Positions 1,057-60,100 of a stretch of 64,000 nt of DNA are shown piece by piece (the first letter of the stretch is position 1; every line of letters begins with the position of its first letter). The stretch spans positions 3,773,450-3,837,449 of the forward strand of contig NC_057750.1 of assembly GCF_004010195.1 (NCBI RefSeq), read 5' to 3'. Origin of the DNA: Chiloscyllium plagiosum (taxonomy: Eukaryota). The position numbers were made by a program, and so were the translations under genes. Below the pieces are notes generated by a model. It saw nothing but the letters and a program-made list of their open reading frames with translations, made no database searches and was not told the DNA's origin.

Positions 1057-1178
1057 ATGAGAAAGTGAAGACTGCAGATGCTGGAGATCAGAGTCAAAAA
1101 ATATGGCGCTGGAAAAGCATACATGGTAAGGCAGCATCTGAGGTGCAGGTCAGTTGAAGTTTCAAGCATAAGCTCTTG
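1057..1178 (-). mobile_element. Short Penelope-type terminal-repeat insertion (family A) with 13-bp TSD
   Basis: gagaaagtgaagactgcagatgctgg... flanked by aacagcct(a/g)atat at 1044-1056 and 1179-1191. Confidence 0.65.
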
Positions 1179-1818
1179 AACAGCCTGATATTAGTCATAT
1201 CAAAGATCCTCAGACAATACCTTCCAAACCCATGACCACTTCCATCTAGAAGGACAAGGACAGCAGATACATGGGAACATTACCATTTTCTAGTGCCCCT
1301 CCAAGCCACTCAGCATCCAGACTTGGAACAATATCACTATTCCTTCACTGTTGCTGTCTCAAAATCTTGGAATTCTATTCCTGATGGCATTCTGAGTCGA
1401 TCCAGAGCAGGTGGGACTGCAGAGATTCAAGAAGGCAGCTCATCACCACCCTCTCAAGGGCAAGTAGGGACAAGCAATAAATGCTGGCCCAGCCAGTGAT
1501 ACTCACATCCCACAAGTGAATAAATAAAAAAAATACTAATGTAGAAAAACAAATATAATTTGTGCCCACCAATTCCAAGAGTGGGCGCTCCATTGCTTAC
1601 CCACAGATTGAATGACTGTAGCTCTACTGACTCAGGCCTCATTACTGGTAGGAAAGGACCTTCTGCACTTACTGATGCCCACCTGCCTGCGCTGTGACAA
1701 CAGTTAAAATCAGCTCTCCCAGTCTACCCAGAATACTCATGGCTTATTCTCAGAATCCCAAAACACTTCTTTCTCTTCTGCAGAGTACCCATTCTTTTTT
1801 GAACTATAGCAGAACTGG

Positions 1819-1990: not shown

Positions 1991-2825
1991 TATAGCAGGA
2001 CTGGGCATCCTACAGAGAAGGCTTGCTCTTCTGGGCTTCAACTCACCCCCTGTGAAACACTCTATTTGTGTTTACATTGCTGCTTCCTATTGTCATTTCA
2101 CTGCTTGGAGCTTTGGAAATTGCTGTTGTCTCACTGATCTGTGAGTCTCTGCAGACTGACCTCTCTAAATCAGCTATACAGATCAGGCATTGATTTTTGG
2201 TCCTTGAGACTCTGTGAGGCAACATCATGAGGCATCAACAAGCTCTTTCTCTCCCTTCCAATGAGGTTAAATGATGAAAATTCGACTGGTATTTCAGATA
2301 TGTAGAATAAGCAGACATATCTACAGAGGTTACTTTGGAAATATCTTCAACTATGACCACATTCTGTATAAAGGTACATTAATTGGAGCGGGTGTAGGCA
2401 TGAACAACAGAAATTATTCCAAGATCTGTGAGAGGAACTTAGAAAAACACAGGTTGCACAACCTATTGAGAAAATTTAAAGGGGCATCAAGCTGTATCAA
2501 ATTCTAAATTGTGTAGTTTAGAAGATAAAACCAAATACAGCTTCAAGGTAAGCCAGGCTAAATAGAAATTGTATACTGATATTGAAGACAGCTTAACATC
2601 TTTCTGTTTAGCTGTTATAGTTATGTCCTAAGGCAATTAATTAGATAATGTATTGATTAATCTTTTATGTTTGAATGATACCGACCGGGGGCAAAACAGT
2701 TTGCTCTGTTTTCAAATAAAAGTGCCATGGAATTTTTACCTTCACCTGAACAGCCAGCACTTCCAATGACCCAGCACTCAGTTTAGATTATTCAAAGCAA
2801 GCCAGGCAGCATCAGGAGGTGGAGA

Positions 2826-2860
2826 AGTCAACATTTTGGGTGTAACCCTTCTTCAGGACT
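2826..2860 (-). ncRNA. Decayed minimal hammerhead ribozyme motif (family B)
   Basis: AGUC-CUGAAGA-A-GGGU uac ACCC-(A)AAA-UGUU-GACU; stems I and II pair. Confidence 0.45.
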
Positions 2861-3116
2861 GGAGGGTGGGTGTAAGGGAAGCTGCAGATAAAGGGGGTGG
2901 GGTTACAGGGTGGTAAGGTGGGGATAGATGAGGACAGGTAGAGGGTATGACCTGGTTGGTCGATGGGAGGAATGAATCCAGTTGGTGGTTAGAAGGAAGG
3001 GTCGATGAGAGTAATAGAAGAGAGGGGGAGGGGCTGGGAGAGGAGTTGGATGGGAAGGAAGGTTATTTGAAATTGGAAAACTTAATGTTGAGTTCTCTGG
3101 GCTGTAGGCTACCTAG

Positions 3117-3432
3117 GGCAGTGTGGTGGCTCAGTGGTTAGCACTGATGTTAACCTGCCAAGGACCCAAGGTTTGATTCCAGCCTTGGGCGACTGTGTGT
3201 GGTGTTTGCACATTCCCCTTGGGTCTGTGTGGGTTTGCTCTGGTTTCCTCCCACAGTCCAAAGATGTGCAGGTTAGGTGAATTGGCCATGGAAAAATTGC
3301 CCATAGTGTCCAGGGATGTGTAGTAAGATTCATTAGTCAGGGGTAAATGTAGAGTAGGGAATGGGTTTGCGTGGGATACTCTTTGGAGGGTCAGTGTGGA
3401 CCGTTTCCATATTGTAGGGATTCTATTCTATT
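3117..3432 (+). mobile_element. HE1/V-SINE-type SINE inserted in a Penelope element
   Basis: A-box tggctcagtgg, B-box gtttgattcc, tail gattctattctatt. Confidence 0.85.
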
Positions 3433-4222
3433 CATGAGGAGTTGTTCCTCCAAATTGTCATCTGATTGATTGTGGCAATGGAGGATGCCAAGGATGGTCA
3501 TGTCAGGAAGGGAAATTAAAATGGGTGGTGACTGGGAGGTCAGGTCGGCCCCAGCTGAGATGATCTGCAATATGTTCCCTTAATTTACATTTGGTCTCCC
3601 CGATGTAGAGAAGACTACATTGGGAGCACCGGATACAGTAAAGTAGGTCAGAGGGGAGGCAGGTGAACCTCTGTCTTACCTGGAAGGACTGTTTGGGGCC
3701 CTGGATGGAGGTGAGGGGAGGTGTGCCGGCTGGTTTTGCATCTTTTCTGGTTGCAGGTGAAGGTACCTCAGGGTTCAGGGGTGTTGGTGGGGAGAGTGGC
3801 GCAAACCAAGGAATTTGCAAAGGGAACGGTCCTTGTGGAAAGCAAAGAGGAGTGGGGGAGGGGAAGATGTTCTTGGTGGCGGAGTCTAGTTGGAGCTGGT
3901 GGAAGTATTTAAGGATGTTGCGCTGGATGCAGAGAATGTGAGGTGGTAGGTGAGGACAAAGGGGGACCCTGCCTTTATTGCTTTGGGGGGGGGGGGCTTA
4001 CTCAACATTGAGTTCTCCAACTTCAAATAATCTCTCTTCCCATCACCCGACTCCCTTCCGAGCCCCGAGCCCCTTTTCCATTCCTCTCAATTACTCTTCC
4101 TTCTAGCTTCCAACTGGATTCATTCCTCCCATCAACCAACCAGGTCAGATCCTCTACCTGCATTCACCTTACCACCCTGACCCCCACCCCTATATCTGTA
4201 GCTTTCCTTACACCCACCTCCC

Positions 4223-4257
4223 AGTCCTGAAGAAGGGTTACACCCGAAATATTGACC
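4223..4257 (+). ncRNA. Minimal hammerhead ribozyme motif (family B), partly decayed
   Basis: aGUC-CUGAAGA-A-GGGU uac ACCC-GAAA-UAUU-GACc. Confidence 0.5.
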
Positions 4258-4601
4258 TCTCCACTTCCTGATGCTGCCTGGCGTGTTGTGTTCTTCCAGC
4301 CTCCTGTTTGTCTACCTTAGATTCCAGCATCTGCAGTTTCATTTATCTCTGAGCTTCTTCAAAAGCTAGGCCACTGCAATGCTGAGGGAATACTGCACTG
4401 TCTTTTGGATGCTATGTCAAAATTTTCACCACGCTACTTCAAAAGAAAAGTGGCTGGCCCCTCCAAATTGCCTGACTACTTCACCCAACATCACGGAAAA
4501 ATTGATTATTCAGGTCATTATTAACTTTGCTAATTACTGTGGATAAACTAGACCTTACTTTTTCTAGATCACACTATACTTCAATACGTGCTTCATTGGG
4601 T

Positions 4602-4641
4602 AAAAAGCGGTTTCCTGGGGCAAAAAGCGGTTTCCTGGGGC
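4602..4641. repeat. Perfect 20-bp tandem duplication
   Basis: aaaaagcggtttcctggggc x2. Confidence 0.85.
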
Positions 4642-5361: not shown

Positions 5362-8300
5362 GTAACTCTTTGTTTCTCTTTTGGCTCTTCCACAATCCAC
5401 GTTGCAAACTGTTGGGGAAAAGATAAAGGGAGTGTTACAGGATGGTGGGGAACTTTACAATGTAGCAACGACCAAGATTTAATGATGCGATTGGCCAGCG
5501 AAATAATGGCTACATTGCAACCTTGTACAATGAGCGAAAGTGAGGACTACAGATGCTGGAGATGAGTCAAGATGAGAGTAGAGGAATGAGGATTCCTGAT
5601 GAAGGGCTCCTGCCTGAATCGTCGATTTTCCTGCTCCTCGGATGCTGCCTGACCTGCTGTGCTTTTCCAGCACCACTCTAATCTCGATCCTTGTACAATG
5701 GATTAATTGGTCCTGTTCCATTTGGCGAGAACCTGATCCTATTCTCGACCATTACAGCAGCAAAATTACTAAATTCGGTTGCTGGAAATCAGAGGGAAAA
5801 AAAAAACCCCAGAAAATGCTAGAAACTTTCGAGTGGTTAGACAACATCTGTGAGAAATAGAACTTATTGATATTTCAGGTCAATGACCTTTCATCAGAAG
5901 TGGAAGAAGTTCAGACAGAACATAAATTTTAAGATGGAAGGATATATATTCTCAATTTCCACTTGCACAAATGTGTCTGTTTCCACGACTCACGTTGACA
6001 AAAAGGTTTTAAGATTTGTTTCTTTCTTCCCTGAAGGCATTGGTTTCTTACCATGGCAACGTTCAGCCTCCACCTTACCCCCACTCCAACATGGCTTGAC
6101 ATTGGTCGAGCTAGATTTGGTCACTTTGTAGAGTGGATGGGGGAGGCCATGAAGGTAGAACTGGAAATCCAGCAGAATTGACAGGAATGGTGCTGGGAAT
6201 TACGGAATGCTGCTTCATCAATGCCATTCCCTACTTCATAAGGTCAGAGATGGGAATTTTCACTGTTGATTACAGTGTTTAACTTCATTTGCAACTGCTC
6301 GGATGCTGAAGCAGTCCATATCTGCCTGAAACAAGAAATGGACAAAATTCAGGCTTGGGCTGATAGTAGCAAGTAATTTTTCTATCATGCAAATGCAGAC
6401 AAAAGTGTCTCCAACAACAGAGAATCCAATCACACATCTTCAACAGTCTAGGTCATTGTTGTAAGTAAATCTGCAATAATTAGAATTCACAGTCACCAGT
6501 GACCAGAAAATGCCTGGACAAACCACACATATACTATGACTACAAGAGCAGATCAGAGGTTGGATATTCTGCAGAAAATGATCCACCACCTGACTGTTGA
6601 AAGTTTGTTCACAATCTACAAGCTACCAGTCAGGAGTATGAGGGAGCAATCAACACTTACCTAATTAATGCAGCTACAACAATATTCAAAAAGCTCAACT
6701 TCATCTAGAACTTGGCAATCTTTTTCAAAACTCATCCAGCAGCCTAAATATCCAACTTTTTCTACCTACCTACTAGAACCTGAGAGTTTTGGTCTGCATC
6801 TTCACAATGGGTAGTGCAGTTACCAGCTGAGCATATGATGATTAAACTTGCAGTGTAATAGCTACTGTATCAGATTACTTCCAACTGTTATATTGTTTTA
6901 GAAACACATGGAAGGAGATTGCATTATAAATATCTGTAAAACTGCTGTGCACATTCAAACCGAAGAGTGGCAAGTTGTATATGATCCATCTTTCCTGTTA
7001 ATTGAGAAATATGTAACTTTGCATATCTCTGTTTCCGATTTTGTTTTTGGAACATTCCGAGATGTTACACTAAGTCTGGAGGAAAGACAAAGATAAAAAT
7101 GATAAAATAACTTAAAATGTGTCAGTGGTTATTCCATCTCATTATTCTGCGGTTTTGCCTGAGATTTGCGTTTTTCTTTTTCTAATTAAAAGGGTGGTAA
7201 CTGTTTAAAGAAGTGTTGGAAAAAACACTTGCACTGTCCTCCACATTGCTTGCAGATAAGGTGACAATGATAATTTTATCTTTTTTGCTTTCACGGCCTT
7301 TATTCTTACCTTCTGTACTAACATTCGGCAATCTACAATTTCAATGAGATTTTTAATTCTTTAAAGAGATGTGGAAATCACTGGCAGGACCAGCACTTAT
7401 TGCCCACTTCTGATTGCCCTTGAGCTGTTGTGCTTTCAGAAAGCAGTTAAGAGTCAATCGCATTTCTCTGGGTCTGGCCAAACCAGGTAAGGGCAGCAGA
7501 TTAAAACAGATGCTGGAGAAATTCAGCATCTGCGGAAAGAGAAAGACAGAGTTAACATTTCAACCATTATTTTATTTCAGATTTCCAGCATTTGCAGGAT
7601 TATTAGCAAGTCAGTGTGCATGATTGAAACAGCAGATATTTTAGAACAATCAACAGGACTTCCATGTCCATTAGATTTTTATAAATTCTAACATTTATAT
7701 TGAATTAAAATTTCACTGTCTGCATGGTGAGATTTGAAACCACATCCCCACAGCATTAGTCTAGGTGGTCTACGTAACTAGTCTCAGTGACAAGCCCACA
7801 ATACCTCAACTTGCCCATTATTGACTTTGCTGAGTTATATATACAAGGGCTGAAAGAAACACTATATATGGCAGGCTTTCACTGCAGTACAGTTTTGAGG
7901 AAATGCTGCAATCTCAGAGATGTTGTCTGCCCTCTCAAGTGGACGTAAAGGTACATGGCTATTGAGAAGGTTTCCATGATATTTGGTCAATATTTATCCT
8001 TTTTACTGAAGGATAAATATTGTCACATTATCTCAGTGTTATCAGTGAGAGCTTGCTGTGCAGAAATTTACAGCCCTGCTTCTCACATTACAACAGTAAT
8101 TGAACTTGAAAAGGTACCTCAGTGACTGTGAAGCTTTGGAACACACTGAGGCCATGAAAGGTGGCATACAAATACAGGTCTTTCTTTTCACATCATTGCT
8201 GTTTGTGGGATCTTGCTATGTGCAAATCAACACATCACTTGTATGAAATGAGGTGACCATATCATGCTCCATGCCATTGTAATTTATCGTGATATTAAGT

Positions 8301-11300: not shown

Positions 11301-14300
11301 AAGACCTTGGCTTAACATCTCATCCAAAAAATATTGCTGCATTCCCCCAGTACTGCCCTGGGAGTGACAGTCTCTGAAAATTGGTGTGATCAATTCTTGA
11401 TCCTTGAGTTGGTACAGCTCCAAATTCTCTCTGATCATAGCTTAGATTTAGGATGACTATTGCTATAATCCTGATTGATGTTCCTCAATTCAAATGGCCA
11501 GGATTTGCAAATTTGCAGTGATCTCCTTTGCTAAAACTCAACTGGCAATAATGATATGGCCAAGGTGGTAGCCAAACATTTATCTTCTAAATTTCACAGT
11601 GCATTAGCGCTCTGCCAGGTGGTGCTTTTCCTATTTCTCCAGGCTTACCAAATATTCCTTTTGCTTTGTAGATTGAAAAGCCCAGAGCTTTCAGGTGTGG
11701 GACATTTGGAGCCACCAGTCTACAGCAGAGGCACCTGGCAACAGGAGACTTTGAAGGCAATCTTCACATCTGGTAATAAGTTGGTTTGTTGAGTTGTTTA
11801 AAAAATGGAATTAATTGCTTAATAAAAGACTTCAAAATTGAAAGCCCTTCTTTCAATTCAAAAGCTGGCATAAAATCTAGTCTTACTAAATCCTAGAATG
11901 GTTGCAGAATGGAAGAAGGCCATTCTGTCCACTTTGTGCTGGTTTGTTGAAGGAGTAATTGAGCAAAGGACTATTCCAGATCCTAATCATTCGCTACACA
12001 GAAAATGTTTTTCTTTATTTCGCTGCTTATTTTGCCAATACCTTATATCTGTGCCTTCTGGGTCTTGATCCTTTCACCAATGAGAAGAGATTCACTCTGT
12101 CCATACCTGTCATTGTTTTGAATACCTCAAGTCTCCAATCATACTTCCCTTCCAGAGAGAACTGTCCCAATTGCTCCGTTCCATTTGTTTAATCTTTTCT
12201 ACGTAAAGCACTCATTCTGAGGACGATGGTTCCATGAACCAGATAGGATAAAGCCTATCTCTAGTACTGCACCAAGTGGCCATTTTATTTCTCTGAGTTT
12301 AGTGTTGGCTGATCAATTGTAAAGAACACAACAGCTTAATCTTGCCCTCTGACTACCTCACTTTGATAGGCCCACAAGAGAATATTCAGGAGCAGGAGCC
12401 ATTGCCTTTCCTAACTAAGCTTCCTGCCATCACAGTGACAGTCAATAAACTTTATACAACTAGGATAGTTATACCTGGATAGGACAGTTCAATGGATTAA
12501 AATATAAATACACAAGTTAGGACAGACAGATCAGGGGCAGAAGTAGGTCATTTGGACACTCAAATCTACCATTGTTCAGAGGATTTAAAAGATTCTTTCA
12601 TAGGATGTAATCATCATTGGATTTGTTGCCCATCCCTGACTGCCTTTGAGAAAGTGATGAGGTAAAAACAATGACTGCAGATGCTGGAAACCAGATTCTG
12701 GATCAGTGGTGCTGGAAGAGCACAGCAATTCAGGCAGCATCCGAGGACAGGCAAAATCGACGTTTCGGGCAAAAGCCCTCCTGATGAAGGGCTTTTGCCC
12801 GAAACGTCGATTTTGCCTGTCCTCGGATGCTGCCTGAATTGCTGTGCTCTTCCAGCACCACTGATCCAGAATTTGAGAAAGTGATGATGAGCTACCTTCT
12901 TGGCTGCAGTCTCTATGGTGTGGGTGCACCTATTGTACAGAGGTTTGGTACAACTGAGCTATGCCATTTCAGAGGACAGTTAAAAGCCAACCACAATACT
13001 CTGGGTCTGGTGTCATGTAGATCTGGCCAGGTAAGGACGGTAAAGTCCTTCCCTAAAGGGCATTAGTGAACAAGTTGAGTTTTTATGACAATCAGAAATA
13101 GCTTCATGATCATGATAAAAATCAATTTTCAATTCCAGTGTTGTAAAGAATCTGGATTTCACCAGCTGTCACATTGAAATTTGAAACAATGGAATGTCCC
13201 CAGAGCATTTGCCTTAATTAATTAACAGAGACACCTCTCTACCTTTTCCCTGACCTTCCTAAATGTCTTCTACCTTTCAGGTTCAATCCCATGTCTTCCT
13301 GCAGCCATGTCTCTGTAATGGCTACCAGAGTGGATTTATTTATTTATTTCTGTTTGTGCTCTTAGTTCATATGTTTTGCTTTGAATGCCTCACATATTCA
13401 AATGCAATGCCTTTACATTTACACCTTTATTCTTGATTCATATTATCTATCTCTTTCTGTCACAATCTGTTTATCATTTCTCATCATAATATCTTTCTCT
13501 TTGGCTTTCACTCTACTCTTTGATTTACCACAAGTGCCCTACATTTGATCACTTGGTTCACTATTCCCAGATGTGTAGTTAGCAAGAACACCAGCCCATG
13601 TACAGTTCAAATGGAGATCATTCCATCAGTACAGATCCCACTCCCCCTCCAGTAATTTAATGATCCAAAGATAGTGACCCTGTTCTGCTTCTTTAATGTG
13701 GCACCTGGCTCTTCTTACTGACAATACAGAACCTCCTGCTTTGACTTACCCATGATATTGGTACTTACATAGACCATGACAACAGAATCCTCCCCCTCCC
13801 ACTGTAGGTTCTTCTCCAGCCCTGAACAGCTATCCTGAACTATAGTACCCAACAGCAGCAAAGTTGTCTGGACTTGCACTCTTTGCTGGAGGACAATATC
13901 AATCTTCCTCACTGCACTGACCCCTAACACCACTAATATTCCTTTCTCCTTATCCGTTTTCCTTTACCACAGTGTGATGTTCAGTAGGCCCATCTATCCT
14001 ATGGCCCTCACCCTTAACCAAATAAGCTGAAATAATCTCAAACCTGTTGGACAATTGCAAATGCTGCCCTCTGAGTCCCCTTACCCACTTCACCCACAGT
14101 GACACCCTCCTGTCCTTGAATACTGACCAAATGAGACCAATCTTGAGAGGTATGACTGCCTCCTCACACATAAAATTTATCAAAATTCCCCTCTCCCTCA
14201 CGTGTCACTGTGTTTGTAGATGAATGTCCAGCTTATATGTCCAGTTTGAACTGCTTGATCTTCAAACATTTCCTGCAGATGTGTTTGCTTTGGACCAAAC

Positions 14301-26829: not shown

Positions 26830-28030
26830 CTGACTGTAGGTTTGCTTGCTGAGGTGGAAGGTTCATTTCCAGACGTTTGAGCACCCTACCTAGTAACATC
26901 TTTAGTGGGCCTCTGGGCAAAGCACGACTGATAATTCCTGCTTTCTATTTAGGTTTTGGTTTTTTTGGGTTGGTGATGTCATTTCCTGTTCTTTTTCTCT
27001 CAGGGGTTGGTAGATGGAGTCTAACTTGATGTGTTTGTTGATAAGAGTTCCAGTTGGAATGTTATTAGATTACTTAGTGTGGAAACAGGCCCTTCGGCCA
27101 AACAAGTCCACACCGACCCGCCGAAGTGCAACCCATCCAGACCCATTCCCCTACATTTACCCCTTCACCTAACGCTACGGGCAATTTAGCATGGCCAATT
27201 CACCTAACCTGCACATTTTTGGACTGTGGGAGGAAACCGGAGCACCCAGAGGAAACCCACGCAGACACGGGGAGAATATGCAAACTCCACAGTCGCCCGA
27301 GGCGGGAATTGAACCCGGGTCTCTGGCGCTGTGAGGCAACAGTGCTAACCACTGTGCCACCCATTTGCTATGACTCTAGGAATTCTCGTGCATGTCTCTG
27401 TTTGCCTTGTCCGAGGATGGATGTGTTGTCTCAGTCAAGGTGGTGTCTTCCTCATCTGTATGTAAGGATACTAGTGAGTCATATTGTTTTGTGCCTAGTT
27501 GATGTTCACGTGTCCTGGTGGCTAGTTTTCTACCTGTTGGTCCAATGTAGTGTTTGTTACAGAATTTTGTAAATGATGCTAGTTTTGCTTGTTGTCTATA
27601 CATGGCCTTTCAAGTTCATTAGCTGCTGTTTTAATGTGTTGGTGGACTACTGTGATGCCAAGGGGTCTGAGTAGTATGGCAGTCATTTCAAATATGTCCT
27701 TGACATGGTAGAGTTAATTGGATACCCATTCTTTTGAATACACAGTTTAGGTGCTTTTTCGCTGTTCTGCATAGTTCCTCTGTGCTGGCTCTTTGAAATA
27801 ATGTTGTAATGCAGCTTCATTTATGGGTATTTGAAAGATTGCTTCTGTAGTTCAATATTTGGTCTATGTGTTGTTTTCCTGTAGATGCTGATTTGAAGTT
27901 GCCCCTTGGCTATTTGCTCTACTGTGACATCTAAGAAGGGCAGTTTGTTGTTGTTTTCTTCCTCTTTAGTGTATTTTATGCCAGTAAGGCCTATATCCAG
28001 AACCTCAACCCAAGCTACAAATCTTAATTC
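26830..28030 (-). mobile_element. Penelope-like element fragment (RT C-terminus plus GIY-YIG), same family as 18947..19348
   Basis: KEEENNNKLPFLDVTV...YRKTTH (27821..28051 -) and CNKHYIGPTGRKLATRTREHQ (27376..27603 -); SINE inserted at 27064-27362. Confidence 0.8.
27064..27362 (-). mobile_element. HE1/V-SINE-type SINE (young, CpG-rich) inside a Penelope element
   Basis: Family consensus match with CpGs retained. Confidence 0.85.
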
Positions 28031-41300: not shown

Positions 41301-44300
41301 GCAGTATCCAATTTCATCAGCTGTTTCTTTGTATTGTGGTTGAAGGTGGTCACAAATGCTTCAGGCTTTTCTCTTGCATGTGTTAAATAAAGTTTCTTAA
41401 ATCAGGTACAACAGTAATAAGGATGCCTTTTAACGAGAATTTGATAGGTCCTCATGCATTTTGAAATAATTACATTCCTAAAATGAGGGACCCCTAGAAG
41501 GAGCTCATTTATTGAAGTTATCAAGTCCAAAAACTACAAAGATTGGAAGATCCCGATCCCACACCAATGAGTAAGAACAAATTACTGCAGATGCTGGTAT
41601 TTATACTGAAGAAAAATGCTCAAGATCACAGCCGGTCAGACAACGTCCACCGAGAGAGCAATCTAAAGTTGAATTTAGAGGACTCTTCATCAGCCCTGAA
41701 GCTTCAATGTAAACACATACTTTAGAAATTTCAACTGAAAACCCATGCTTTGCCCATGTAGCAATTTCATGAAAATTTTTAATAAAACAGGATTCACATC
41801 TTTCACTACTGATCTTGGAATTAGAACACTGTGCAAAATACACTTGCACTTTTTAGCCAATTCAGATTTAATCAAGAATAACAGACATGAACTTTTTTTG
41901 GACTAATGAAAATCAACCCCCAACATTTAATCATTGTCCTTGACTTACAAACATGAATAATGAAATTGAGGAATTTGCTGAAATTTACTACAATCCTAAA
42001 GAGTTGAAGGCTGATGGAATATGCACAAGATTCAACCTCCTCTTCCTCCACATCATACGTGCATTGATTATTCTGACTGTTGAAAAACCTACCTCTCCCG
42101 GAACAGTTCCTTCCCATTCAGCTCATAAACTGCATCATCAGCATCCCGGGCATCATCAAATTCCTAAACAAGGATAGCAAGAATCCAATTTATTAAAAAA
42201 AGTTAAATAATTTTATGAATGGTTTCACAAAATCACAGCTTGCATACCAGAGTCAATCCAAGGGAGAGGAGCTCAAATTCTACTGAGACCAAAAATAAAA
42301 AATTCAGAAGCTGGGCCATTGTGAAAATAACCAGCTCAGAAACATCCTTCACAAGGGAATACACCGCCTTGTCTTTTTTGTACTCGAGTCATCATTTTTG
42401 AAAGTCAACAAATTACAAGCAATATTCACAGGCAGAGAACAAGTCAAAAAACATTGTTAATTCAGGGAACAACTTTACTGCAGAAAACAGTAGTACGCTT
42501 TGTCATTGTTTCTTTCGTACATGACTAACCAACCCAAGACCCAGACTGTTTAATAGCCCTTTTACTGCCACTGACATCAAAATCCGCTGTACCATGCAGT
42601 GAAATTCCATTTCCCCAAAGGAACATGCAGCTGCAATCTAGTCTTAAGTTATAGTCTTAGTGGGTAACATTAGAGAAAGATCTAACTACATATTCTAATT
42701 AAGACTGTTTGCATCACCACAAAAGCAGTCAGGACTAATCATTAAAATCTCAAACTTAAGAAAATTCACTGAAAGGAAAGATGGACAAGGCTGATTTACA
42801 TATCATTGCCAACTCTCCGTTAGGCATGACAAATCATTGAAACTGTTGATGCTAGGTTTGTATCCAGATGAAGTGAAATTTACTTTCAAAAATGATTAGT
42901 AAAATCACTGAACGTAAATGCTTATTGCCATCATGGACTCAAGTTATAAAAACAAACATTTCACATTAATGCTCATGGTAAACAAGAATCATGAGTTAAA
43001 ATATTCAGAACGCCTACATTTCTGCATTACACTGGCATTAAGAACTTCACGTTCTCCAGCACCATTAATAGTATTAAAAAATAAATTGAAGTGTTCGAAG
43101 CTCAGACAAGATTTTTAAAGTTTTGTTACACGTACCTGGAAGACCACAGCAAATTTACATTAATTGTTTTGCACTGGTTATCTGGGAAAGAACCACTGCA
43201 GGCCTTATAATTATGCTTAGAGCGGTTACAGAGAGAGCTCCAAAGTGATGACCCAAGGTTATTCATCTAGATTAGGACAACATTCAATTCACAGAGAAGC
43301 TAGAATGCCCTGGCACTTCCCTATGCTGCAGAGTCCTTGGATGCGGAAGGTCAGACAGTCGGACAAGATTTTCAAATGAACTGCTACCATGCATCCATAT
43401 AGATTGGAAGTGCTGCAATGGCAAGAGAGATCCTCCATCTTGATGGTATTGTGCTGTTTATATTCTTGCAATGATCCAGATAATGGATTATTCACCACAC
43501 TGCTACATAGGCCTGATGGATAGTGAGTAAACCCTAAAAGGATTAGCAACTCGGAATACCCATTATTTTATATCTTTGTGGTATAACAGTTAGTCCAGTC
43601 CATATCTGGTAACATCCACTGCCCCAGATCTGGAGCAACTGATGTTGCATTAGCTGAAGATTACAGAAGCATGTTCCAAGCCCCTAACAGCCCAATTCGA
43701 GTAACCAGTTTTCCTACAGCCATACAAGCATTTAATTAACCAAAGGGTTATGAACTGAGCTTAACACCCAAAATGGCAGCAGGAACATGGGAAGAACAGC
43801 ACTTAAAACTCTGAACTCTCTCCCTGAGAGCACTGTATGTGTACATCCCCATGGACTGCTATGGTTCAAGGCAACTCATTGCAACCACCTAAAGGACAAC
43901 TAGGAAGGGACAAGAAATACTGGATTAGTTAGTGTCACCCAAATCCCAAGGAAGAACAAAAACCACCTCATTCGCAATCTTACGAAGGAGGACGAGCTGC
44001 TCCCCTGCAATAATATCCTAGCAACTAGTGTCAAGTCAACTACAAACATTCTACCAGATAGTACTCTAGCTATGGAAATTATTTTTTTAGTTTGGCTGCT
44101 GCAAGGGTGCCATGGTATCATTTATTTCAATGTTACTCCGACCTTGCCTTTTGCACATTGACAACAGGATCCAAATTGTGACAGAATCTAGCAGAACCAA
44201 AAAGGAAGGCAGAAACTGATGTCACTATTAGTGATTGTGAATGGGCAAATATGGATGCAATTGATTGTTTTAACTCAACACACTATGCCAGTCTTCAATG

Positions 44301-46213
44301 TCATCAGGCAGATCTCAAGGTCACAATTCTACAGGGAACGTTTAGCTAGATCAGGAGCTATAACTGGTCAAGAGTACATAGCTACAGGTGGGATGGCATA
44401 ATGCCCCAGTTCCTGGTGCGGCTAAACCACAACCCATGGTTCAAAAGGTCACATCTTCCTACAGTATCTCTAGCATGCCTACTTTCTTTGTAAAGTATCC
44501 TCAGGTTTAGATTATTCACCATATGGTTTACACAAAATAAAGTCTGACTACTGCAAAAAGTGCAGACAAGACATCTCAGAAGCACTGAAATTTGTGCACC
44601 AGGATCCTGACCCAAAACTAGTGTTAGAACTGCACAGTGCAGCATCTACCTAATGGGAATCAGTGAAACTCTGCTGTATTTGACTTCAAATTCTACAAAT
44701 AGAATATAAAAATATAGACCAAATTTCATTATAAAAGCTAATGGATAAGGAATGATTCATTATACTTCAGTAGCAATTCTATGATAGCGAAATGCTTCAG
44801 AAACACACTGAAGTCATGACAAATAGTGTTTATAGAGGTGAAGGTTTTCTGTCCCTTTTCCATGAAATATCCATGCGCTGTACCTGTCACAAAAGCAACC
44901 ACTTAACATGGTTGGTCAAGCAATGGAATGGTGCCAACAAAAACAAGACCGAATTATCTACATGGTTGCCCCGGACAGATTGTTTACTTGGTACATTTGG
45001 GATGAGAGTTGACACAAAGTCAACAGAGGAGGATCTGGTTGCAAAATGAAATTTATCAGAATGTTTTAAGGCTTATGTCGTCAGTTCTCAAACTGGATAC
45101 AATGCATCAACTTTAGTGGAATTCACACTAGGCTACATCATTCAAATACACCAAACTTGGCAAAGTATCTCTCTTCAGTTCCTCAGGAGCTGAATCGACA
45201 AGCATATTCTGAGCACAGAACACCTGCCTGGGTAAGATCAGTTTGTATGTAATATTTCTGCCATGCAAAGTTCATTTGTAACATGAATGCTGCCGGTTAC
45301 CCCTCCACGAGATTCAGTTCATCACGCCTACCACCACTTACCTGAAACAGCCATTTAAGTGTGGTTGCAAATGAAACAGCATAGAATCCATGGTGTGGAA
45401 ACAGGCTATTCAGCCCAACAAGTCCACACCAACCCTCTGAAGAGCATTCCAACCAGATCCCTATGCTATGTCTGTAACCCTGCATTTCCTGTGGCCAACG
45501 CACCTAACTTACACATCCCTGAACATTATGGGCAATTTAGCATGGCCAATCCAACTAACTTGCACGTGACTGCAGAAGGAAGCGGTAGCACCCTGGGAAA
45601 CCCATGGACATGGAGAGAACGTGCAAACTTCCCACAGTCAATTATTTGAGAAGAAACAATAAGATAAGGCTAAAACATCATCTCCATCACAATGAAATTA
45701 AGTAACTGAAACCTCCCACCTACTTGTAAAATCACCTTGATATATTAAAGAATAATATCTACTAATGAACAACTGTTTTAATATGGTAGAAGAGAGTCTA
45801 CTTCAGCAGTTTCCTCAAATGAAAATTTTCGATCTCAGTCAGGCTGTCACCATGCATAATTATCCAAATCAGGAAAGAACATTAAAACAATATGAAATTA
45901 GAGGTTACATCCATATAAGGACAGCAAGATGTTTCTCAGATATTACAGGGAACTTTCAATTTCAAAATTTAAACACATCACTGGTAACAATTTTAAAAAG
46001 TGATCCCACATTTTATTAAAAACTATTTTAAAACATCAAGTCACAGGATAAAATCCAGGAATCTGCAACAAGTGGCAGCATACTCACCACAAACCCAAAG
46101 CCTCTCTTCAGGTCAATTTCACGGATACGTCCATAACCTTTGAAGAACTTTTCCACATCACGTTCTCTCACCTGAGGACTCAGGCGACCAATAAACACAC
46201 GGCAACCGTTCAT
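32026..46213 (-). CDS. SRSF5: SRSF5-like (srsf5a-type) serine/arginine-rich splicing factor, complement join(46088..46213,42093..42163,39660..39764,36996..37065,34243..34316,33112..33222,32026..32323), 284 aa
   Basis: RRM1 (GCRVFIGRL...[21 protein letters not shown]), pseudo-RRM with SWQDLKD, and a C-terminal RS domain. All introns GT..AG; 855 nt in frame; exon layout matches SRSF5. Confidence 0.92.
33112..33222 (-). CDS. SRSF5: SRSF5-like exon 7 ([37 protein letters not shown])
   Basis: cctaacag| ... AG|gtattc; 111 nt. Confidence 0.93.
34243..34316 (-). CDS. SRSF5: SRSF5-like exon 6 ([25 protein letters not shown])
   Basis: tttgtag| ... GG|gtaaga; 74 nt. Confidence 0.93.
35281..35654 (-). 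other. Candidate poison (NMD) exon / regulatory element in SRSF5-like intron 5
   Basis: CpG-rich non-repeat block; acceptor tttgtttagcag|, in-frame TGA at 35627-35625, donor AGG|gtattg at 35280; same intron as SRSF5 unproductive splicing. Confidence 0.6.
36996..37065 (-). CDS. SRSF5: SRSF5-like exon 5 ([23 protein letters not shown])
   Basis: ttttcag| ... CAG|gtgggt; 70 nt. Confidence 0.93.
37695..38530 (+). mobile_element. Highly degraded CR1-type LINE RT fragment
   Basis: VDEANAVDV...K.FD.V-like residues; LEKLG..S..R.RDLTEVF remnant. Confidence 0.6.
38548..38629. repeat. Perfect 41-bp tandem duplication
   Basis: cttgttgggctacagggtaagagaaccattgttactcttgc x2. Confidence 0.9.
38635..38842. 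mobile_element. Fold-back Penelope-type insertion (family A), 15-bp TSD
   Basis: Inverted arms about 38670-38749 and 38758-38840; TSD ttactcttgcaagag at 38620-38634 and 38843-38857. Confidence 0.8.
38750..38783 (+). ncRNA. Minimal hammerhead motif (family A), CpG-decayed stem III
   Basis: UC-CUGAAGA-A-GGGC ucau GCCC-GAAA-UGUU-GA. Confidence 0.5.
39660..39764 (-). CDS. SRSF5: SRSF5-like exon 4 ([35 protein letters not shown])
   Basis: ctctag| ... AG|gtaaat; end of RRM1 plus RG-rich linker. Confidence 0.9.
39880..41350 (-). mobile_element. Degraded LINE (L2/CR1-clade) RT and 3' fragment; related pieces at about 720-1520, 6150-6700, 26320-26600, 63780-64000
   Basis: NYxPI.LL (41099..41353 -) and GVPQGSVLG-like remnant; shared 3' motif cccttgagaa...ggtgagctgccttcttgaac. 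Confidence 0.55.
42093..42163 (-). CDS. SRSF5: SRSF5-like exon 3 ([24 protein letters not shown])
   Basis: tgtttag| ... AG|gtaggt; 71 nt. Confidence 0.93.
45380..45640 (-). mobile_element. HE1/V-SINE-type SINE, head missing
   Basis: Core and tail motifs. Confidence 0.75.
46088..46213 (-). CDS. SRSF5: SRSF5-like first coding exon ([42 protein letters not shown]); exon starts at 46234
   Basis: Acceptor tttcag| at 46236-46235, ATG at 46213, donor GTG|gtgagt. Confidence 0.95.
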
Positions 46214-47787: not shown

Positions 47788-48208
47788 CTCCAGCCGCCGC
47801 CTCTCGGCACCAACTCGAGCAGCGGCAGCGACGCCCCGGAGCCGCGCCCCGACACGACGCGAACCCACCCAACCCCCCGAAAAAAAAAAGCCAGCCGCGA
47901 CTCCCTCCGCTCACTCGCTGCCTCGCCGGGTGGTTCTCGGGATGGCTCTGCCGCCCTTCAGACTCTCGGCACTCGGTGATTTTTCTCTCTCACTCTCCTC
48001 TACCTCCTCCTCCGCCGCCGTCGACGCCGCTTCTTCTCCTCCTTCAGTCACTTGACGCCAACGTCACTGCAGTGAAACGGGGCTTCCCGTGCTCGTCTCT
48101 CGCTCTCCTCTACCTCCTCCTCCGCCGCCGTCGACGCCGCCGCTTCTTCTCCTCCTTCAGTCACTTGACGCCAACGTCACTGCAGTGAAACGGGGCTTCC
48201 CGTGCTCG
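47788..48208 (-). other. SRSF5: Candidate non-coding exon 1 (5' UTR) of the SRSF5-like gene; upstream boundary (TSS) uncertain
   Basis: Donor GAG|gtaggc at 47787 inside the CpG island; the start-codon exon has its own acceptor, so an upstream exon is required. Confidence 0.6.
47986..48208. repeat. Tandem duplication, 110 + 113 bp
   Basis: 47986-48095 and 48096-48208 differ by one substitution and one CGC indel. Confidence 0.9.
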
Positions 48209-49888: not shown

Positions 49889-50746
49889 TGTTGTGACAAT
49901 TCTATGGCTTTCACAGGCTTATTTTGTCCTGGTTTATATTTGTTAAGAAAGGATGACCGATTGTTCTGTTCATAGGCAAAAGTGAGGACTGCAGATGCTG
50001 GAAATCAGAGTTTAGATTAGAGTGGTGCTGGAAAAGCACAGCAGGTCAGGCAGCATCCGAGGAGCAGGAAAATCGACATTTCGGGCAAAAGCCCTTCAAC
50101 AGGACTGTGCCCATAAAGTAAACAGCTTGTGAGGCCTTGGGTTTTTCTTTAAGTTGGAACACTAGAAGCAGGAGAGTGAGGACTGCAGATGCTGGAGAGT
50201 CAGAGTCGAAAAGTGTGGCACTGGAAAAGCACAGCAGGTCAAGCAGCATCCGAGAAGCTGGATGGGATCAAATTCCCACAGGACCAGGATTTTTAGTTTT
50301 AGATTTTCAGTAGCAGTTGCTGCTGGGGTCTTGAAGCTGAGGTTGGAAGCTGTTTTTTTCTGTCTGTTACAGCTAAAAGCTGGGATTCTTTTCCCGCTGT
50401 TAAAATTGAATGTGCAACGATCTATTTTAATGAATTTGCCTTTACCAAGGGTGTGTTTATGGGATGTAACTATAATGGAACAGTTAATGTTTATAGTTAA
50501 GTAATCTATTGTTCTATTAGGTTTTCCAATAGAGTAAAGTTGTTATTCCAATTTCTTTTTTTGTATTTTCTTTATATTAAGTATTGTGTATGAATCAAGT
50601 GTAGATGTTTTGCTTCAAGTCTCGTAGTTTGACCAATTGGATTGCATCCAGAATGCAATGCCTGGCACTTACCTTTAAAATAAGAAAAAGTTAGATTTTA
50701 GGCTATCTTCTTAAAATTTTGAGGGGTTTTGGATTGGTCCATAACA
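49889..50746 (+). mobile_element. Probable solo LTR related to 9455..10069 (5' boundary uncertain)
   Basis: 3' end ...cttaaaattttgaggggttttggattggtccataaca resembles ...cttaagaatgttttaaatggtctggcttagtccataaca; no TSD verified. Confidence 0.45.
49973..50253 (-). mobile_element. Two short family-A Penelope-type terminal-repeat insertions (about 49973-50103 and 50170-50253)
   Basis: Both begin agtgaggactgcagatgctgg...; the first ends at the hammerhead-like motif. Confidence 0.65.
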
Positions 50747-54170: not shown

Positions 54171-57100
54171 GTAAAACATTGAATAACAATCATCGGATGA
54201 GGAAGGTTCAGGACATTGAGGCCTTCACAGCCTGAACTTCCAAACCTGAGACTTAATCTAAAATCCAGTTTTAATTTATGAAAGAATTACCAGGTTTTTG
54301 CAAAATTATTTTCAGTCAGACTGTTGCATAAACCAATTCTTTTCTCTTCCCCCCCCCCCCCATCATCAGAATATTTAGTTTTTCACCTTGCACCCAGTAA
54401 AATGACAGTCAAATTATAATTTTTTTATTGCAATTATGAGTGTTTATATCTGCCATTAGAAATGCTAGGACTGTGATTTAGAAAGCATAGCTTAAAAATA
54501 AATCGAAGAAAATATGCAATGCTGGAAATCTAAATTTTTAAAAATGCACATGTAGCTGGATAGGATTGGAAAAGAAATGCATTATTCATTTCACAGACAG
54601 CTTTCCATCTGCATTCTGGCCTGCTCTGGTAAGGATTTTGTAAACATGAAGGGCTGAATGGCCTTCTGCTGTATTTTAAATCTCTTAAGGATATGAACAG
54701 TATAATTCATGTGAAATATTATTATTCATAGGCTCACAAACACAAGATCTGTTACAAGATGTTCCAAAAGTGAGTGATCCTTCTGCAGACATTGTCACTC
54801 AGGAGGCCAGTGCACAGGTAGAAGGGATGTCCATAATCTCTACTGAGGATCATGTCTCACCAAGTGAGGTTGAGGAACAGATCAAATCCTCTGTTCCTAC
54901 CTCGCCACAGGAGATTGATGACGCTGCCAGACTGATGAATAAGTTCCATGACGAGCAGCAGGAAGATGCTATGAATGCTTCACTGAACAGCATGTTTCAT
55001 ACGATTGCCAGTAGCAAAGCACAGATCAAAAGCCAGCAGAAGGACGAGCCTGATCTTATGTATGACCAGAAATTGGATATCATCAAGGATCTTTTCTGGT
55101 GTAAGCCAGTGGTGTTCCTCGAACGTTTTCACAAAATCATCAAAGAAGAGCACCTTGTCTGTTTCAACCATTTGGCTGAAAACTACGAAGTTACTTTTTA
55201 CAGTAATGAAATTAGGAAGTCTTCCATGAAGAAAACTGCCCGAACAAATGTTCGCAACAAGAGGTACGCGGCCCTGCAGCAGCTGATTAAAGGTGATGTC
55301 TAACATGGTATTTGGTATTTTGTTTTCACCCCACTTTTAGGAAGCTGCTGCCTTTTGCTAGTGATAGTTTTTTTTTCCCCCTTGTACTTTCCCAAAATGT
55401 TGTCACACCAGACAATGAAAAATGAAAGAGTAATTCAGCCATGAACCACATCACATCTGTTTGCAATATGCTGAAAGCAAGATTTAGTTGAAATATTGTT
55501 ACCTTTGAGCTTTTAATTTGTTTGGATCAGGGTTTTTCTTACTAGAATTAGAATCCCTACTGTGTGGAAACAGGCCTTTTGGCCCAACTAGTCCAGACCG
55601 ATTCTTTGAACAGTATCCCACCAATACCCATTCCCCTACCTTTACCCCTGACTCATGCACCTAACCTACACATCCCTGAACACTATGGAGAATTTACCAT
55701 GGCCAATTCACCAGACTTACACATCTTTGTGATTGTGGGAGGAAACCGGAGCACCCAGAGAAAACCCATGCAGACACGAGGAGAACGTGCAAACTCCACA
55801 CAGATAGTCTCCTGAGGTTGGAATTTAACCTGGGACCCTGGAGCTGTGAGGCAGCAGTGCTAACCACTGAGACATTATTGCTGCCCCCTTACTGTTCCCT
55901 TAAAGGAGTTAATTGTGTTGGTCTATCAAAATTAACTTATCCCATCCCAATTAATCAAATCTTCACTTTCCAGTAGGAAAGTCTTAATGTTGGTTTAAGC
56001 TGGATGATATATTCTTTGTCCCATTAGTAATGTGACCCAACTCCAGCTGTGGCTGTGTTCAATCAAAGTTATGAACTTGTATTTATAAAGTACCTTTAAT
56101 GCAATTAGCAGTCCAAAGGTGTTTCACAGTAGCATTATAAAGCAATGTATGACACTCAGCAATATTAGGAGATATTAAATCAAATGACCAAAAACCTTGA
56201 CAAAGAGGTGGATTTTAGGGAGTATCTTGAAGGAGTAAAGTGAGGTATTGGGCCAGAGAGTTTAGGGAGGAAATTGCAGAGCTTGAGGCCAGGAAGCTGA
56301 ACACAACATATTTTGGAAGGTAATGGGGCTGAAGGAAGTTACAGACTAGGATGGGCACAGCCATGGAGAGATTTGAGAACAAAGACAAACATTTTAAAAT
56401 TAAATCTTGTTGATGAGGTTCCAGTGTAGATCAATCAATGATGGGGAACCAGGAATTTGTGCAATTTAAGGCACAAGCTGCAAAGTTTGAATGAGCTCAA
56501 GTTAATAGAGGAGAGAATCTGGGAGGCTCATCAGGAGTCATCGAGTCTAGAAGTAACAGAAGCATGGATGAGGGCAAAGGCAGCAGATGAGCTGCGGTAG
56601 GGTGAAGTCAAATGATGTTGCAGCGGAGAAAAAAATGTGGTCTTGGTTACAGCACAAATATAAGGCCAGGAGCTCCCTGATGGTTTGTGTAAAGCAGCAA
56701 ACGTTCCATATGATTAAGTATGGGCACTGACCCCACTCTTGCCCTTTCATGGTGCATATTGCTGGCATATTTCCCACAACTGGATGACCTGGTTTTGTGC
56801 CAGTGACATAATCCATGGAATCATAAAATCTCAACAGTGTGGAAACAGACCCTTCGGCCCAACAAGTCCACCCTGACCCTCCGAAGAGTAACCCACCCAG
56901 ACCCATTCTCCTACCCGATTACTTTACATTTACCCCTGACTAATTCACCTAACATACACATTGGGCAATTTGGCATGCCCAAATGTACCTAACCTGCACA
57001 TCTTTGGATTGTGGGAGGAAACCAGAGAACCTGGAGGAAACCCACGCAGACTTAGAGAATGTGCAAACTCCACACAGACAGTCGCCCAGGGCTGGAATCC

Positions 57101-60100
57101 GAACCCAGGTCCCTGGCGCTGGGAGGCAGCAGTGCTAACCACCATGCCACCAGGTCTTACTTCAAAAATCCTTTCAAAGAAATGTGAAGCCAAAGTGAAA
57201 TGTAACAGATAAAATTATCAAAGGTATTCAAGATACACAAATCTTCAGCTTGACCCATACATTTGCAACAGTATGTATCATGTGAATTTAATTTTTTTTT
57301 GGTTTTATACTTTCAAGTAAAGAACAAGTTCTGATGAAAAGATCCTAGGCCTGAAATGTTAACTCTTTCTCTTTCCATAGATATTGTCAATCCTGCTGGT
57401 GTTTCCACTATTTTCTGTTTTATTTCAGATTTTCAACATCCCCAGTATTCTGTTTTTGTGTTAATCTGTAAATAGTGCCATTGTTCAGAAGCTTGTTTTG
57501 TGTTTTTGTCGAGCATTAACATAGAGCACTGCCTGCTCCCTCTAATCCGTCTCATCAATATTTCTCACTCGAGCTTTTTGAGTGAGCTTGCTAGTTTTGT
57601 ATCAAACAATTGTAAGTTTTATTGTTGTAGGTTTGTATCCAGTAAAAACAGAGATTAAATTCCTTCTTTGTATTGACACCCTTGTTGTTAACAGAAAAAG
57701 GAAGAAATTTATCTCGTTCTGTGGGCTGGAATCAAAACTAAATGTCGAATGTGAGCACATGACGTTGTAGCTTCTTGTTTTATGTTGGCTCCTGTTTCAT
57801 GGTGATTTATAAATAATCTAATTGATTTAATCTATCCGGATAGTTCTCTTCATGCACTGTTAGAAACAGATTGTAATCCTTTCGTGTCTGACATCTCAAT
57901 TTTGATGTACTTTGTCTTTCCAATCTTGTTCTTTTAAAAAAATATATAACTTATCAGAACAGAAGAAAAAAATTAATTAATATATTCCTCCTCTCTATAT
58001 TTGTTTTATTGAATTGGCAGTGGTCTCACCCAAGAAACAAATTCACCTTTCCCAGTACTTGGTTATAACAAAAGAAGAGAAAGTGCTGGAAAATCTCAGC
58101 AAGTCTTGCAGCATCTGTAAGGAGAGAAAAGAGCTGACGTTTCGCGTCTAACTGACCCTTTGTCAAAGCTTTGACAAAGGGTCAGTTAGACTCGAAACAT
58201 CAGCTCTTTTCTCACCTTACAGGTGCTGCAAGACTTGCTGAGATTTTCCAGCATTTTCTCTTCTTTGGTTTCAGATTCCAGCATCAGCAGTAATTTGCTT
58301 TTATCTTTGGTTATAACAAGCTGCTAAAGGAAGAAATGGACAAATTTGTTTTCTTCTCTTCATAAATAACCACAGCAATTTCTTCCCACTTGCATTTTTC
58401 CTACGGTTTTAATTGCAGAACATTTCCTGCACAGAAGGGACTTGGATGGTCTGTTATGTATGCTGACTCATATAGCAGTCTAACAGTCCTGTTCCCTTGA
58501 GCTAGATAAATTCTTAAGTAACAAGTGAATCAGAGGATATTGTGGATAGGCAAGAATGTGGAGTTAAGGTCACAATCTCATTGAATGGACAGGCCTAAGG
58601 AGCTGAAGGGCTTGTTCATGCTCCTAGGTCATTTGTATCTCACCAAAACCCTGATATCTTCCTCTGTTTCAGTAACAACATGCATTAGAGAAACTAGAAG
58701 CAGACGAAGGCCATTCAACCCTTCAAGCCTGCTTCATCATTCAATATGATAATGGCTGGTGCTCAGTATCAATGCCATATTCTCTCCCCATACGCCTTGA
58801 TGCTTTTAAAATCCAAACATTTATGTATCCATTTCTTGAATATATTCACTGACTTGGCCTCCACAGCCTTCTGAGGTAGAATGTCCCAATCTTCTTTTGA
58901 GTGTAGAAGGTTTTCTCCATCTCAGTCTAAAATGGCCTATCCCATATCCTGAGACTGTAGCCTGGAAAAACATCCTTCCTGTGTCTAATTAGTCCAGCCA
59001 TGTTAGAGGTTTGTACATTCAGTCAGATCCCCTCTCATCCTTCTAAACTCTGAACATTTATGCTAACCTTGGTATCAGCCTAGTCAACCTCTTTCGCATT
59101 TCATCTATGGCAAGCATGCCCTTTCATGGGTGGGGAGACTAAACCTGCATGCAGTGCTCCCGATGCAATCTCTTCATGGCTATGGCTAACTGCAGTAAGA
59201 CATCCTGACTTTTGAACTAATTTCTCTTGCAGTGAAGGCCAATAACCATTTGCCTTCCCAGTTGCTTGTTGAATCTGCCTGTCTACTTTCATTCACTGGT
59301 GTACAAGGACATCCAGATCCCCTTGTACATCCCAATATATCACGATTTAAATAATGCTGTGCCTTTCAATTTTTCACACTGAGGTTCAGATTAGATTCCC
59401 TACAGTATGGAAACAGGCCCTTCAACCCAACCAGTCCACACCGACCCTCCAAAGAGTAACCCACCCAGACCTATTTCACTCTGACTAATGCACCTAACAC
59501 TATTGCGCAATTTAGCATGGCCAATTCACCTGACCTGCTCATCTTTGGACTGTGGGAGGAAACCAGAGCACCCGGAGGAAACCCACGCAGACGTGGGGAG
59601 AATATCTGTGTGGAGTTTGCACAGTCACCTGAGGCTGGAATCGAACCTGGGACCCTGGTGCTGTGGGCAACAGTGCTAATCACTGAGCCACCATGCCGCC
59701 AAATATCGCCTGAGGCTGGAATCACACCCAGGTCCCTGGCACTGTGAGGCACCAGTGCTAACCACTGAGCCACTTAACTTCATATAGCAATTCCTTTAAT
59801 GTCATAGATTGCTTTATTGTTCTTTACAAGGGTGATTATCAAACAAGATTTGACACTCGGCAATGCAAGGAGATACTAGGTGACCAAAAGATTTGGTCAA
59901 AGACGTAGGTTTTAAAGAGCTTTAAGGGGGAGAGAGGCAGAGGGTTTAAAGTGCTAATTCTAGAGCTTTAGAGTCTATGCAGCAGAAGGTACAACTGAGG
60001 CCAGTGAAGGAGCAATTATAATTAGGAATGTACCAGAGGGCAGAATTGGAAGAATGGAGATATCTTGAAGGGTTGTGGACCTGGAAGAAGTCTCAGCCCT

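Follow-up and report, generated by a model that had tools for sequence, protein, structure and literature searches.

Why do many short insertions in the genome of Chiloscyllium plagiosum stop, or fold back on themselves, beside a hammerhead ribozyme motif? The question is raised by a 64,000-nt stretch of contig NC_057750.1 (positions 3,773,450 to 3,837,449 of assembly GCF_004010195.1; hereafter, the window), and was pursued across the 3.56-Gb genome assembly. The insertions in the window are terminal-repeat stubs of Penelope-like retrotransposons of the type carrying a GIY-YIG endonuclease (EN+), and the elements themselves are ordinary Penelope debris. The pattern formed by their ends is real, strong and family-specific, within a known class of elements, and the clue that it gives to the mechanism is new: the 5' ends pile up at an adenine, position -4 of the hammerhead, probably because this adenine is a capped transcription start, with the reverse transcriptase (RT) starting internally and running off the RNA.

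Insertions in the Window and Their Hammerhead Motifs

Positions within the elements are numbered on the ribozyme strand, with C3 of the CUGANGA motif as 0; the predicted cut falls after +27 and the first base of helix I is -4. The pseudo-long terminal repeat (pLTR) pieces in the window, with their target site duplications (TSDs), are as follows.

1057-1178, minus strand: tailed solo stub of the pLTR, reaching +6 of the hammerhead; TSD 1044-1056/1179-1191
1819-1990: head-to-head insertion; TSD 1805-1818/1991-2004
5533-5688: head-to-head insertion, core C3 at 5596; TSD 5521-5532/5689-5700
12661-12871: young hairpin of subfamily 1; TSD 12645-12662/12872-12889
12777-12812, plus strand: minimal type I hammerhead (CUGAUGA at 12781-12787, stem II, GAAA, palindromic ACGU)
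20144-20265, minus strand: solo tailed stub ending at +4, with short filler; TSD 20130-20143/20278-20291
38635-38842: hairpin with its axis at ~38749/50; TSD 38620-38634/38843-38857
49973-50104, minus strand: tailed solo stub that stops at -2; no TSD identified
58072-58306: hairpin with a perfect axis at 58168/58169; TSD 58059-58071/58307-58319
2793-4290: inverted pLTR pair of another related family, with hammerheads at 2856 (minus) and 4227 (plus)

Seven of the eight short insertions are flanked by TSDs of 12-18 bp, whose scores were reached 0-1 times in 300 draws of random zone pairs; the same scoring yielded none for the insertion at 49973. The arms end or invert between -4 and +7 at all eight sites, 20-31 nt on the 5' side of the predicted cleavage site and away from the cut itself. 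The first-pass annotation of the window had described the same seven TSD-flanked insertions, the one at 49973 without a verified TSD, and arms that stop or invert within a few nucleotides of CUGANGA, about 30 nt 5' of the cleavage site; all of this was confirmed.

The paired insertions differ in detail. At 1819, the left arm is short, tailless and inverted, skipping to +3 to -4 and followed by a C, and the right arm is tailed and runs from +4/+5. At 5533, the left arm is tailed and inverted, with an internal deletion, and skips to +1 to -8; the right arm is tailless and runs from -4 (5592). The tailed arm reaches +7 in the 12661 hairpin and +6 in the 38635 hairpin, with the tailless arm starting from -2 and -3, respectively; the arms of the former are 99% complementary. 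In the 58072 hairpin, which belongs to a related but different pLTR family, both arms end at -2 and the core has degenerated to TTGACAA. This is one of several window copies with a cut or degenerate core; those at 1057 and 20144 lack it. The pair at 2793-4290 exemplifies the long copies, with both arms passing through the core into the pyrimidine-rich 3' untranslated region (UTR).

Where intact, the pLTR core comprises CUGANGA, stem II, GAAA and a palindromic helix III, and thus is a minimal type I hammerhead, as defined for Penelope repeats (PMC4209133). In the copy at 12777-12812, cleavage is predicted after 12808 and the 5' strand of helix I is shortened. By eye, the helix I strands covary across families (ATTC/GAAT, AGTT/AACT, GCA/TGC, CCA/TGG and TCA/TGA). 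The window hammerheads had no match in an Rfam search at the gathering score, and folding of the unit as a monomer showed no unusual stability (z -0.3 and -1.4) and did not form the core. A three-way junction, closed by pairing of ~+43 to +50 with the tail, is predicted at L186:1445-1575; its paired words appear conserved across families, and it could be a structure bound by the RT.

Origin from Penelope-like Elements

A 37-mer of the subfamily to which the 12661 hairpin belongs (subfamily 1) has 8,395 exact matches in the genome. Long copies extend in the 5' direction through a pyrimidine-rich UTR into GIY-YIG-like coding sequence. In locus L122, this extension leads into a 99-aa frame with a weak Pfam match to GIY-YIG (E 0.27, below the cut-off), for which the nearest Atlas clusters are GIY-YIG proteins (0.94-0.95); a search of the endonuclease fragment against PDB returned nothing below E 0.5. 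An RT fragment adjoining pLTR copies in L283 matched RVT_1 at E 6e-4, also below the cut-off, and none of five candidate full-length loci contained a readable, intact body of the open reading frame (ORF). Partial tandems, in which a pLTR with its tail continues into the ORF's start, are represented by 558 exact tail-to-ORF-start junctions, with the ATG-led ORF start located after the tail.

The 3' ends fall at two sites ~35 nt apart, +88 to +95 and +123 to +126 (about +90 and +126), which represent the Penelope tail. Insertions of ~95, 130 and 215-235 bp recur because there are two fixed 3' starts and one fixed 5' end. The GIY-YIG-like 5' sequence, the tail and the ORF junctions bear out the assignment of the insertions to Penelope terminal repeats, and the inverted, truncated repeats mentioned in the first-pass annotation are standard for this class (PMC8557442). 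A miniature inverted-repeat transposable element (MITE) or fold-back DNA transposon was rejected as a candidate: the tail is one-sided, the centers vary, and the TSDs are ~12-18 bp rather than of fixed length.

A Peak of Breakpoints at the Hammerhead across the Genome

Arm ends were mapped against subfamily variant references, and a single contig supplied all of the detailed samples, those for subfamilies 1 and 2 as well as that for a control family described below. For subfamily 1, the first 100 listed places on contig 1 gave 84 loci after 4 duplicates were dropped, with 119 arms (one arm of another subfamily was removed), of which 21 were censored; for subfamily 2 (17,621 matches), removal of 6 duplicates left 64 loci with 89 arms, 5 of them censored. 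Censored arms could conceal long copies but cannot generate a peak.

The ends are not spread uniformly along the repeat. In subfamily 1, the end rate per 100 nt was 0.1-1.0 across +59 to +10, 2.1 across +9 to 0, 4.4 across -1 to -10, 2.1 across -11 to -20, and 0 across -21 to -30. The interval from +9 to -17, where 50 of the 86 arms at risk end, had a rate 5.4 times that of +59 to +10 (p = 2e-13) and 6.7 times that of -18 to -100 (p = 5e-10), a peak matched in 0/200 constant-rate simulations. There was no excess of ends at the cut site (+23 to +32) in this subfamily (rate ratio 1.1, p = 0.8). Four arms (in L050, L055, L265 and L267) have +28 as their first base, immediately beyond the predicted cut; this number is not significant, although cleaved RNA might be used on rare occasions.

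The peak was replicated in other samples. In subfamily 2, 45 of the 84 uncensored ends lie within -1 to -10, with the mode at -3/-4 (14 ends at -3 and 10 at -4). Genome-wide exact counts for one young subfamily show that 12,971 arms hold positions 0 to +24, 9,153 reach -4, 6,894 reach -5 and 4,666 reach -9, so that 64% of the core-bearing arms end within nine bases upstream; exact matches are lost at ~11% per base upstream of the core versus at most 0.6% per base downstream, with mutation contributing slightly on both sides. Sixty evenly placed 10-kb stretches yielded 112 arms of all ages, with 8.5 ends per 100 nt in -1 to -10 versus ~1 elsewhere, a few arms of related families inflating the downstream rate, and 0 ends in -21 to -40. 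Rough extrapolation from these 600 kb gives ~660,000 arms in the genome. The first-pass expectation that breakpoints would peak at the ribozyme is thus upheld.

A Family-Specific Edge at a Likely Initiator-like Adenine

The control is a second hammerhead-bearing Penelope-like family with 3,163 exact matches (L028 and L284-L313), for which the first 30 places gave 26 loci and 34 arms. This family has an intact core, a 37-nt tail and hairpins, and its 5' ends are broadly spread: only 2/31 lie in +9 to -17, compared with 50/86 in subfamily 1 and 65/78 in subfamily 2 (Fisher p = 2e-7 and 4e-14). Because the control family passes through its intact core, the hammerhead fold is not a general stop.

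The sharpness of the edge also varies between subfamilies. Ends lying in +9 to -6 outnumber those in -7 to -17 by 62:3 in subfamily 2, in which C-A occupies -5/-4 and helix I is perfect; the ratio is 24:3 for subfamily 3, which also has C-A but pairs helix I imperfectly, and 30:20 for subfamily 1, which combines T-A with an imperfect helix I. Given that subfamilies 2 and 3 are both sharp (p = 0.35 between them) and subfamily 1 is blurred, sharpness tracks the C-A at -5/-4, not the strength of helix I. At the edge, three related families read TCATTC, CCAGTC and TCAGTT, which we take to match the Initiator consensus with its +1 at -4. Judging from these sequences, the 5' edge is likely an Initiator-like A at -4.

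Several other signals were considered as candidates. A splice acceptor at -4 was rejected, there being no AG at this position, and so was ribozyme cleavage at -5/-4, for which the geometry of helix I is unsuited. Subfamily 1 carries a CAG at -20 to -18; copies ending nearby are joined to target DNA or to random upstream points. Transcription of subfamily 1 by RNA polymerase III is unlikely, given internal runs of T4.

Structure and Junctions of the Hairpins

The head-to-head pairs combine one tailed with one tailless arm in 51 of 52 cases, whereas 50-62% of solo copies are tailed. Among 46 uncensored pairs, there are 24 whose tailless arm exceeds the tailed one by 4 nt or more on the 5' side; in these, neither arm contains the other, and hence neither can be a fold-back copy. 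Junctions vary between near-identical copies (19 distinct junctions in 22 hairpins), which, together with the tail pairing, indicates that hairpins are formed anew at each insertion. One junction recurs in 3/22 hairpins, and at least 8 near-identical junctions occur among the best matches listed, which were chosen for likeness to the query.

The two arms of a hairpin are alike in sequence. Non-consensus variants are shared between the arms at 36 sites in 38 hairpins, and a search for hairpins built from two subfamilies found arms identical over +28 to +44 in 39/47. The shared variants and the strict tail pairing suggest one RNA with two start sites, the alternative being arm-to-arm conversion. 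Variants A, B and C are distributed between short and long copies at comparable ratios (36:18, 4:4 and 9:4), and so there is no sign of a separate lineage of stubs.

Several individual loci deserve mention. In L344, which the search for two-subfamily hairpins did not flag, the arms carry different subfamily variants by eye, hinting at two RNA templates or at later conversion. L191 and L210, 3.5 Mb apart, share an identical 451-bp hairpin junction and one common outer stretch, so this hairpin may have been recopied as a unit. Apparent solo stubs in L129, L045, L132, L158 and L178 carry, next to their far TSD, inverted pieces that are very small or start internally, some of which share microhomology with the target, suggesting that the second nick nearly always primes.

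A Nongenomic G at the Edge

Extra bases were assessed in hairpins in which both arms end at -4 with two bases between them; 50 of the 59 such loci were listed, and the counts refer to these. The junctions read GG/CC in 17, TG/CA in 11, GC in 10, GA/TC in 5, CT/AG in 3, CG in 2 and GT/AC in 2 cases; AA/TT, AT and TA did not occur. When neither junction base was genomic, a G stood at -5 on an arm in 16/16 (p = 8e-5), and when one was genomic, the other was G in 17/24 (p = 2e-4). The same test on arms ending at -2 found G in 0/5 (p = 5e-5 versus 16/16; two of the five possibly stem from one duplication). In a second family set of 25 loci, G was found in 12 of the 14 loci that read-through does not explain (per-arm p = 0.015). 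By analogy with L1, in which an extra G at complete 5' junctions is a signature of the cap (PMC11702581), a nongenomic G before -4 is the footprint that would be expected from copying an RNA cap.

A Model for the Origin of Stubs and Hairpins

We infer the following scheme from where the arms end, from the control family, from the excess of G and from the pairing of tailed with tailless arms. Both target nicks would prime, one for each internal start site, probably on the same RNA, and each cDNA would extend for ~95 or 130 nt until it reached the 5' end of the RNA, sometimes copying the cap. A single cDNA joined to the target would leave a solo stub, two cDNAs joined together would leave a hairpin, and a cDNA that jumped back onto the RNA would produce deletions or partial tandems (for example, L046, L131, L138, L173 and L196). 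The ribozyme would mark the edge because its helix I strand constitutes the first four bases of the transcript. A precedent for such priming is the protein of Poseidon, which is described as nicking both target strands, with the tail delimited by two internal sites at which the RT starts (PMC11167929).

A number of observations weigh against run-off from a capped start. One poly(A) single-cell RNA run gave reads from both strands without a pile of molecule starts, which fits read-through from host transcripts; depth in that run rises ~fivefold at -4, as genomic stubs would produce, and is uninformative on the start site. In the Penelope of Drosophila virilis, transcription begins 46 nt upstream of a 75-nt intron terminating at helix I, rather than at that helix itself (PMC2377424, PMC4209133). 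In the young subfamily counted genome-wide, 36% of arms continue beyond -9, which means that templates of other kinds exist, and, of the arms that extend into the ORF, only 3/9 end within the peak interval. A TATA-like box lies at -53 in the control family, 53 nt before the hammerhead, yet ends do not accumulate around the expected start (a single one, at -29, among its 34 arms); run-off stubs are thus not general. As for the extra G, the second set is not significant at the level of loci (p = 0.16), C at -5 is genomic on both arms in 10/50 of the listed junctions, a helix I mirror in the cDNA might supply the same base in subfamily 2, and solo copies are mostly joined by microhomology, with G in 4 of the only six that are not.

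A more elaborate version of run-off, in which Penelope-like elements would make a cDNA resembling the strong-stop DNA of retroviruses, is conceivable but tentative. A protein dimer would prime from both nicks on a single capped RNA, starting at two sites within it, then run off the cap and have to jump back onto RNA in order to continue, the first four bases of the transcript serving both as Initiator and as a strand of helix I. If so, successful jumps would rebuild the pLTR and partial tandems, failed jumps would account for hundreds of thousands of stubs and hairpins, and the question of how pLTRs regenerate would be answered. In either version, the tens of thousands of young stubs would be a fossil read-out of both cDNA ends, yielding a base-level prediction, namely, a capped start at -4 and two primers on one RNA. 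Run-off would also account for a large class of short palindromes that are liable to be misfiled as MITEs or retrozymes.

Alternative Explanations

The RNA 5' end at -4 could instead be generated after transcription, by an exonuclease trimming to helix I or to a bound protein, with the G added without a template or through fold-back. We consider this unlikely, although helix I begins precisely at -4, the peak is sharpest in the subfamily whose helix I is perfect and in which a mirror of this helix in the cDNA would contribute a C, and the protein is reported to aid ribozyme folding in vitro (PMC11167929). Trimming is difficult to reconcile with the equally sharp edge of subfamily 3 despite its imperfect helix I, with G-type junctions in copies lacking mirror pairing (5 of 6 G-type loci among 15 fetched), and with the absence of G at -3 in arms ending at -2 (0/5).

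The first-pass annotation had suggested that the hammerhead fold may act as an RT stop or template-switch point. A fold or dimer that stalls RT or promotes switching on a long RNA would place the peak at the core, as observed, with ends tailing off 3'-ward to +9; deletion and tandem junctions also begin at the core, and paired arms end there somewhat more often than solos (36/40 versus 29/38; 20/27 versus 30/59). We nevertheless do not favor this explanation and give it a low probability: the control family passes the intact core in 29/31 arms, the mode lies beyond the fold, at a point where RT, moving 3' to 5', has already displaced its 3' strands, the upstream edge is abrupt, and neither the nongenomic G nor the dependence on C-A is explained.

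It is less probable still that run-off occurs mainly on short transcripts of earlier stubs, which would carry an internal promoter and be copied in trans in the manner of a short interspersed nuclear element (SINE). Stubs do begin precisely at the Initiator-like position and retain the two sites at which RT starts, minor variants are common to both arms, and the L191/L210 junction recurs. However, the variant ratios reveal no stub-only lineage, and the shared variants could stem from minor autonomous masters or from arm-to-arm conversion.

Finally, the discrete retrozyme-like family also raised in the first-pass annotation, a hammerhead-bounded unit that would cleave itself and move as such or as a circle, is very improbable and remains unsupported, for, although sizes and some junctions recur and four arms begin at +28, junctions are mostly distinct and the near-identical matches were selected for likeness to the query, arms are head-to-head with no tandem array within the window, ends show no cut-site excess and have their mode at -3/-4, and variants are common to short and long copies.

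Other Features of the Window

Exons of an RRM protein (Pfam RRM_1, E 2e-8) lie on the minus strand at 46085-46210 and ~42091-42163; they resemble an SR splicing factor, presumably of the SRSF4/5/6 type. Upstream of the first coding exon of this gene, at 47986-48208, is a GC-rich 113-bp tandem duplication, with two copies 96% alike, which is either a true duplication or an assembly artefact. An acidic open frame of at least 116 aa without a Pfam match occupies 54752-55099 on the plus strand and is probably an exon of another gene. An abundant SINE family of ~300 bp, which appears to resemble the shark HE1 type, is found at 127-358, 19390-19690, 22216-22525, 27062-27367 and other positions.

Relationship to Known Systems

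The insertions share with EN+ Penelope-like insertions the hammerhead-bearing pLTR, the tail at one end, the head-to-head copy, the TSDs, the partial tandems and the upstream GIY-YIG coding sequence; an inverted 5'-truncated copy, a tail of 30-40 bp and hammerheads are described as standard for that class (PMC8557442, PMC3846280). They differ in having a fixed 5' edge, whereas the accessible text of these reports presents truncation as frequent or variable and gives no such edge. The head-to-head palindromes are attributed in PMC3846280 to self-priming on an antisense template, which the 24/46 nonnested pairs do not fit; for these pairs, the structure argues against self-priming and fits priming from both nicks. 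A literature search, mostly of sources outside subscription journals and without supplements, found no title or opening passage reporting a 5'-end peak at a hammerhead or a cap-derived G in Penelope.

The insertions also resemble the Poseidon element of Anolis, PAc, in which two internal RT starts bound the tail, both strands are nicked and extended, ends at the ribozyme cut are absent, and a dimer is predicted (PMC11167929); in PAc, unlike here, where the ATG-led start follows the tail, the ORF starts in stem II, and the passages considered give no 5' end points for its cDNAs. The D. virilis Penelope similarly has an Initiator promoter inside the pLTR and a minimal type I core with a palindromic helix III, but here no AG precedes -4, and the start would be helix I itself (PMC2377424, PMC4209133). 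The extra G at complete 5' ends is a likeness to L1 (PMC11702581).

Non-long terminal repeat retrozymes are likewise noncoding, derived from pLTRs and equipped with a type I hammerhead, and are described as tandem repeats of at least two consecutive ribozyme units (bioRxiv 10.64898/2026.07.22.740005). The insertions studied here are instead solo, head-to-head or ORF-linked tandems that end away from the cut site, and units with at least two consecutive hammerheads were found neither within the window nor among the sampled insertions.

In L1 twin priming, two target nicks prime cDNA and each of the resulting pieces represents its own part of the RNA; the two arms studied here represent one and the same part. 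Retroviral minus-strand strong-stop DNA is a short cDNA that starts internally, extends as far as the 5' end of the RNA and is primed by tRNA; in the stubs and hairpins of C. plagiosum, the primer would be target DNA rather than tRNA.

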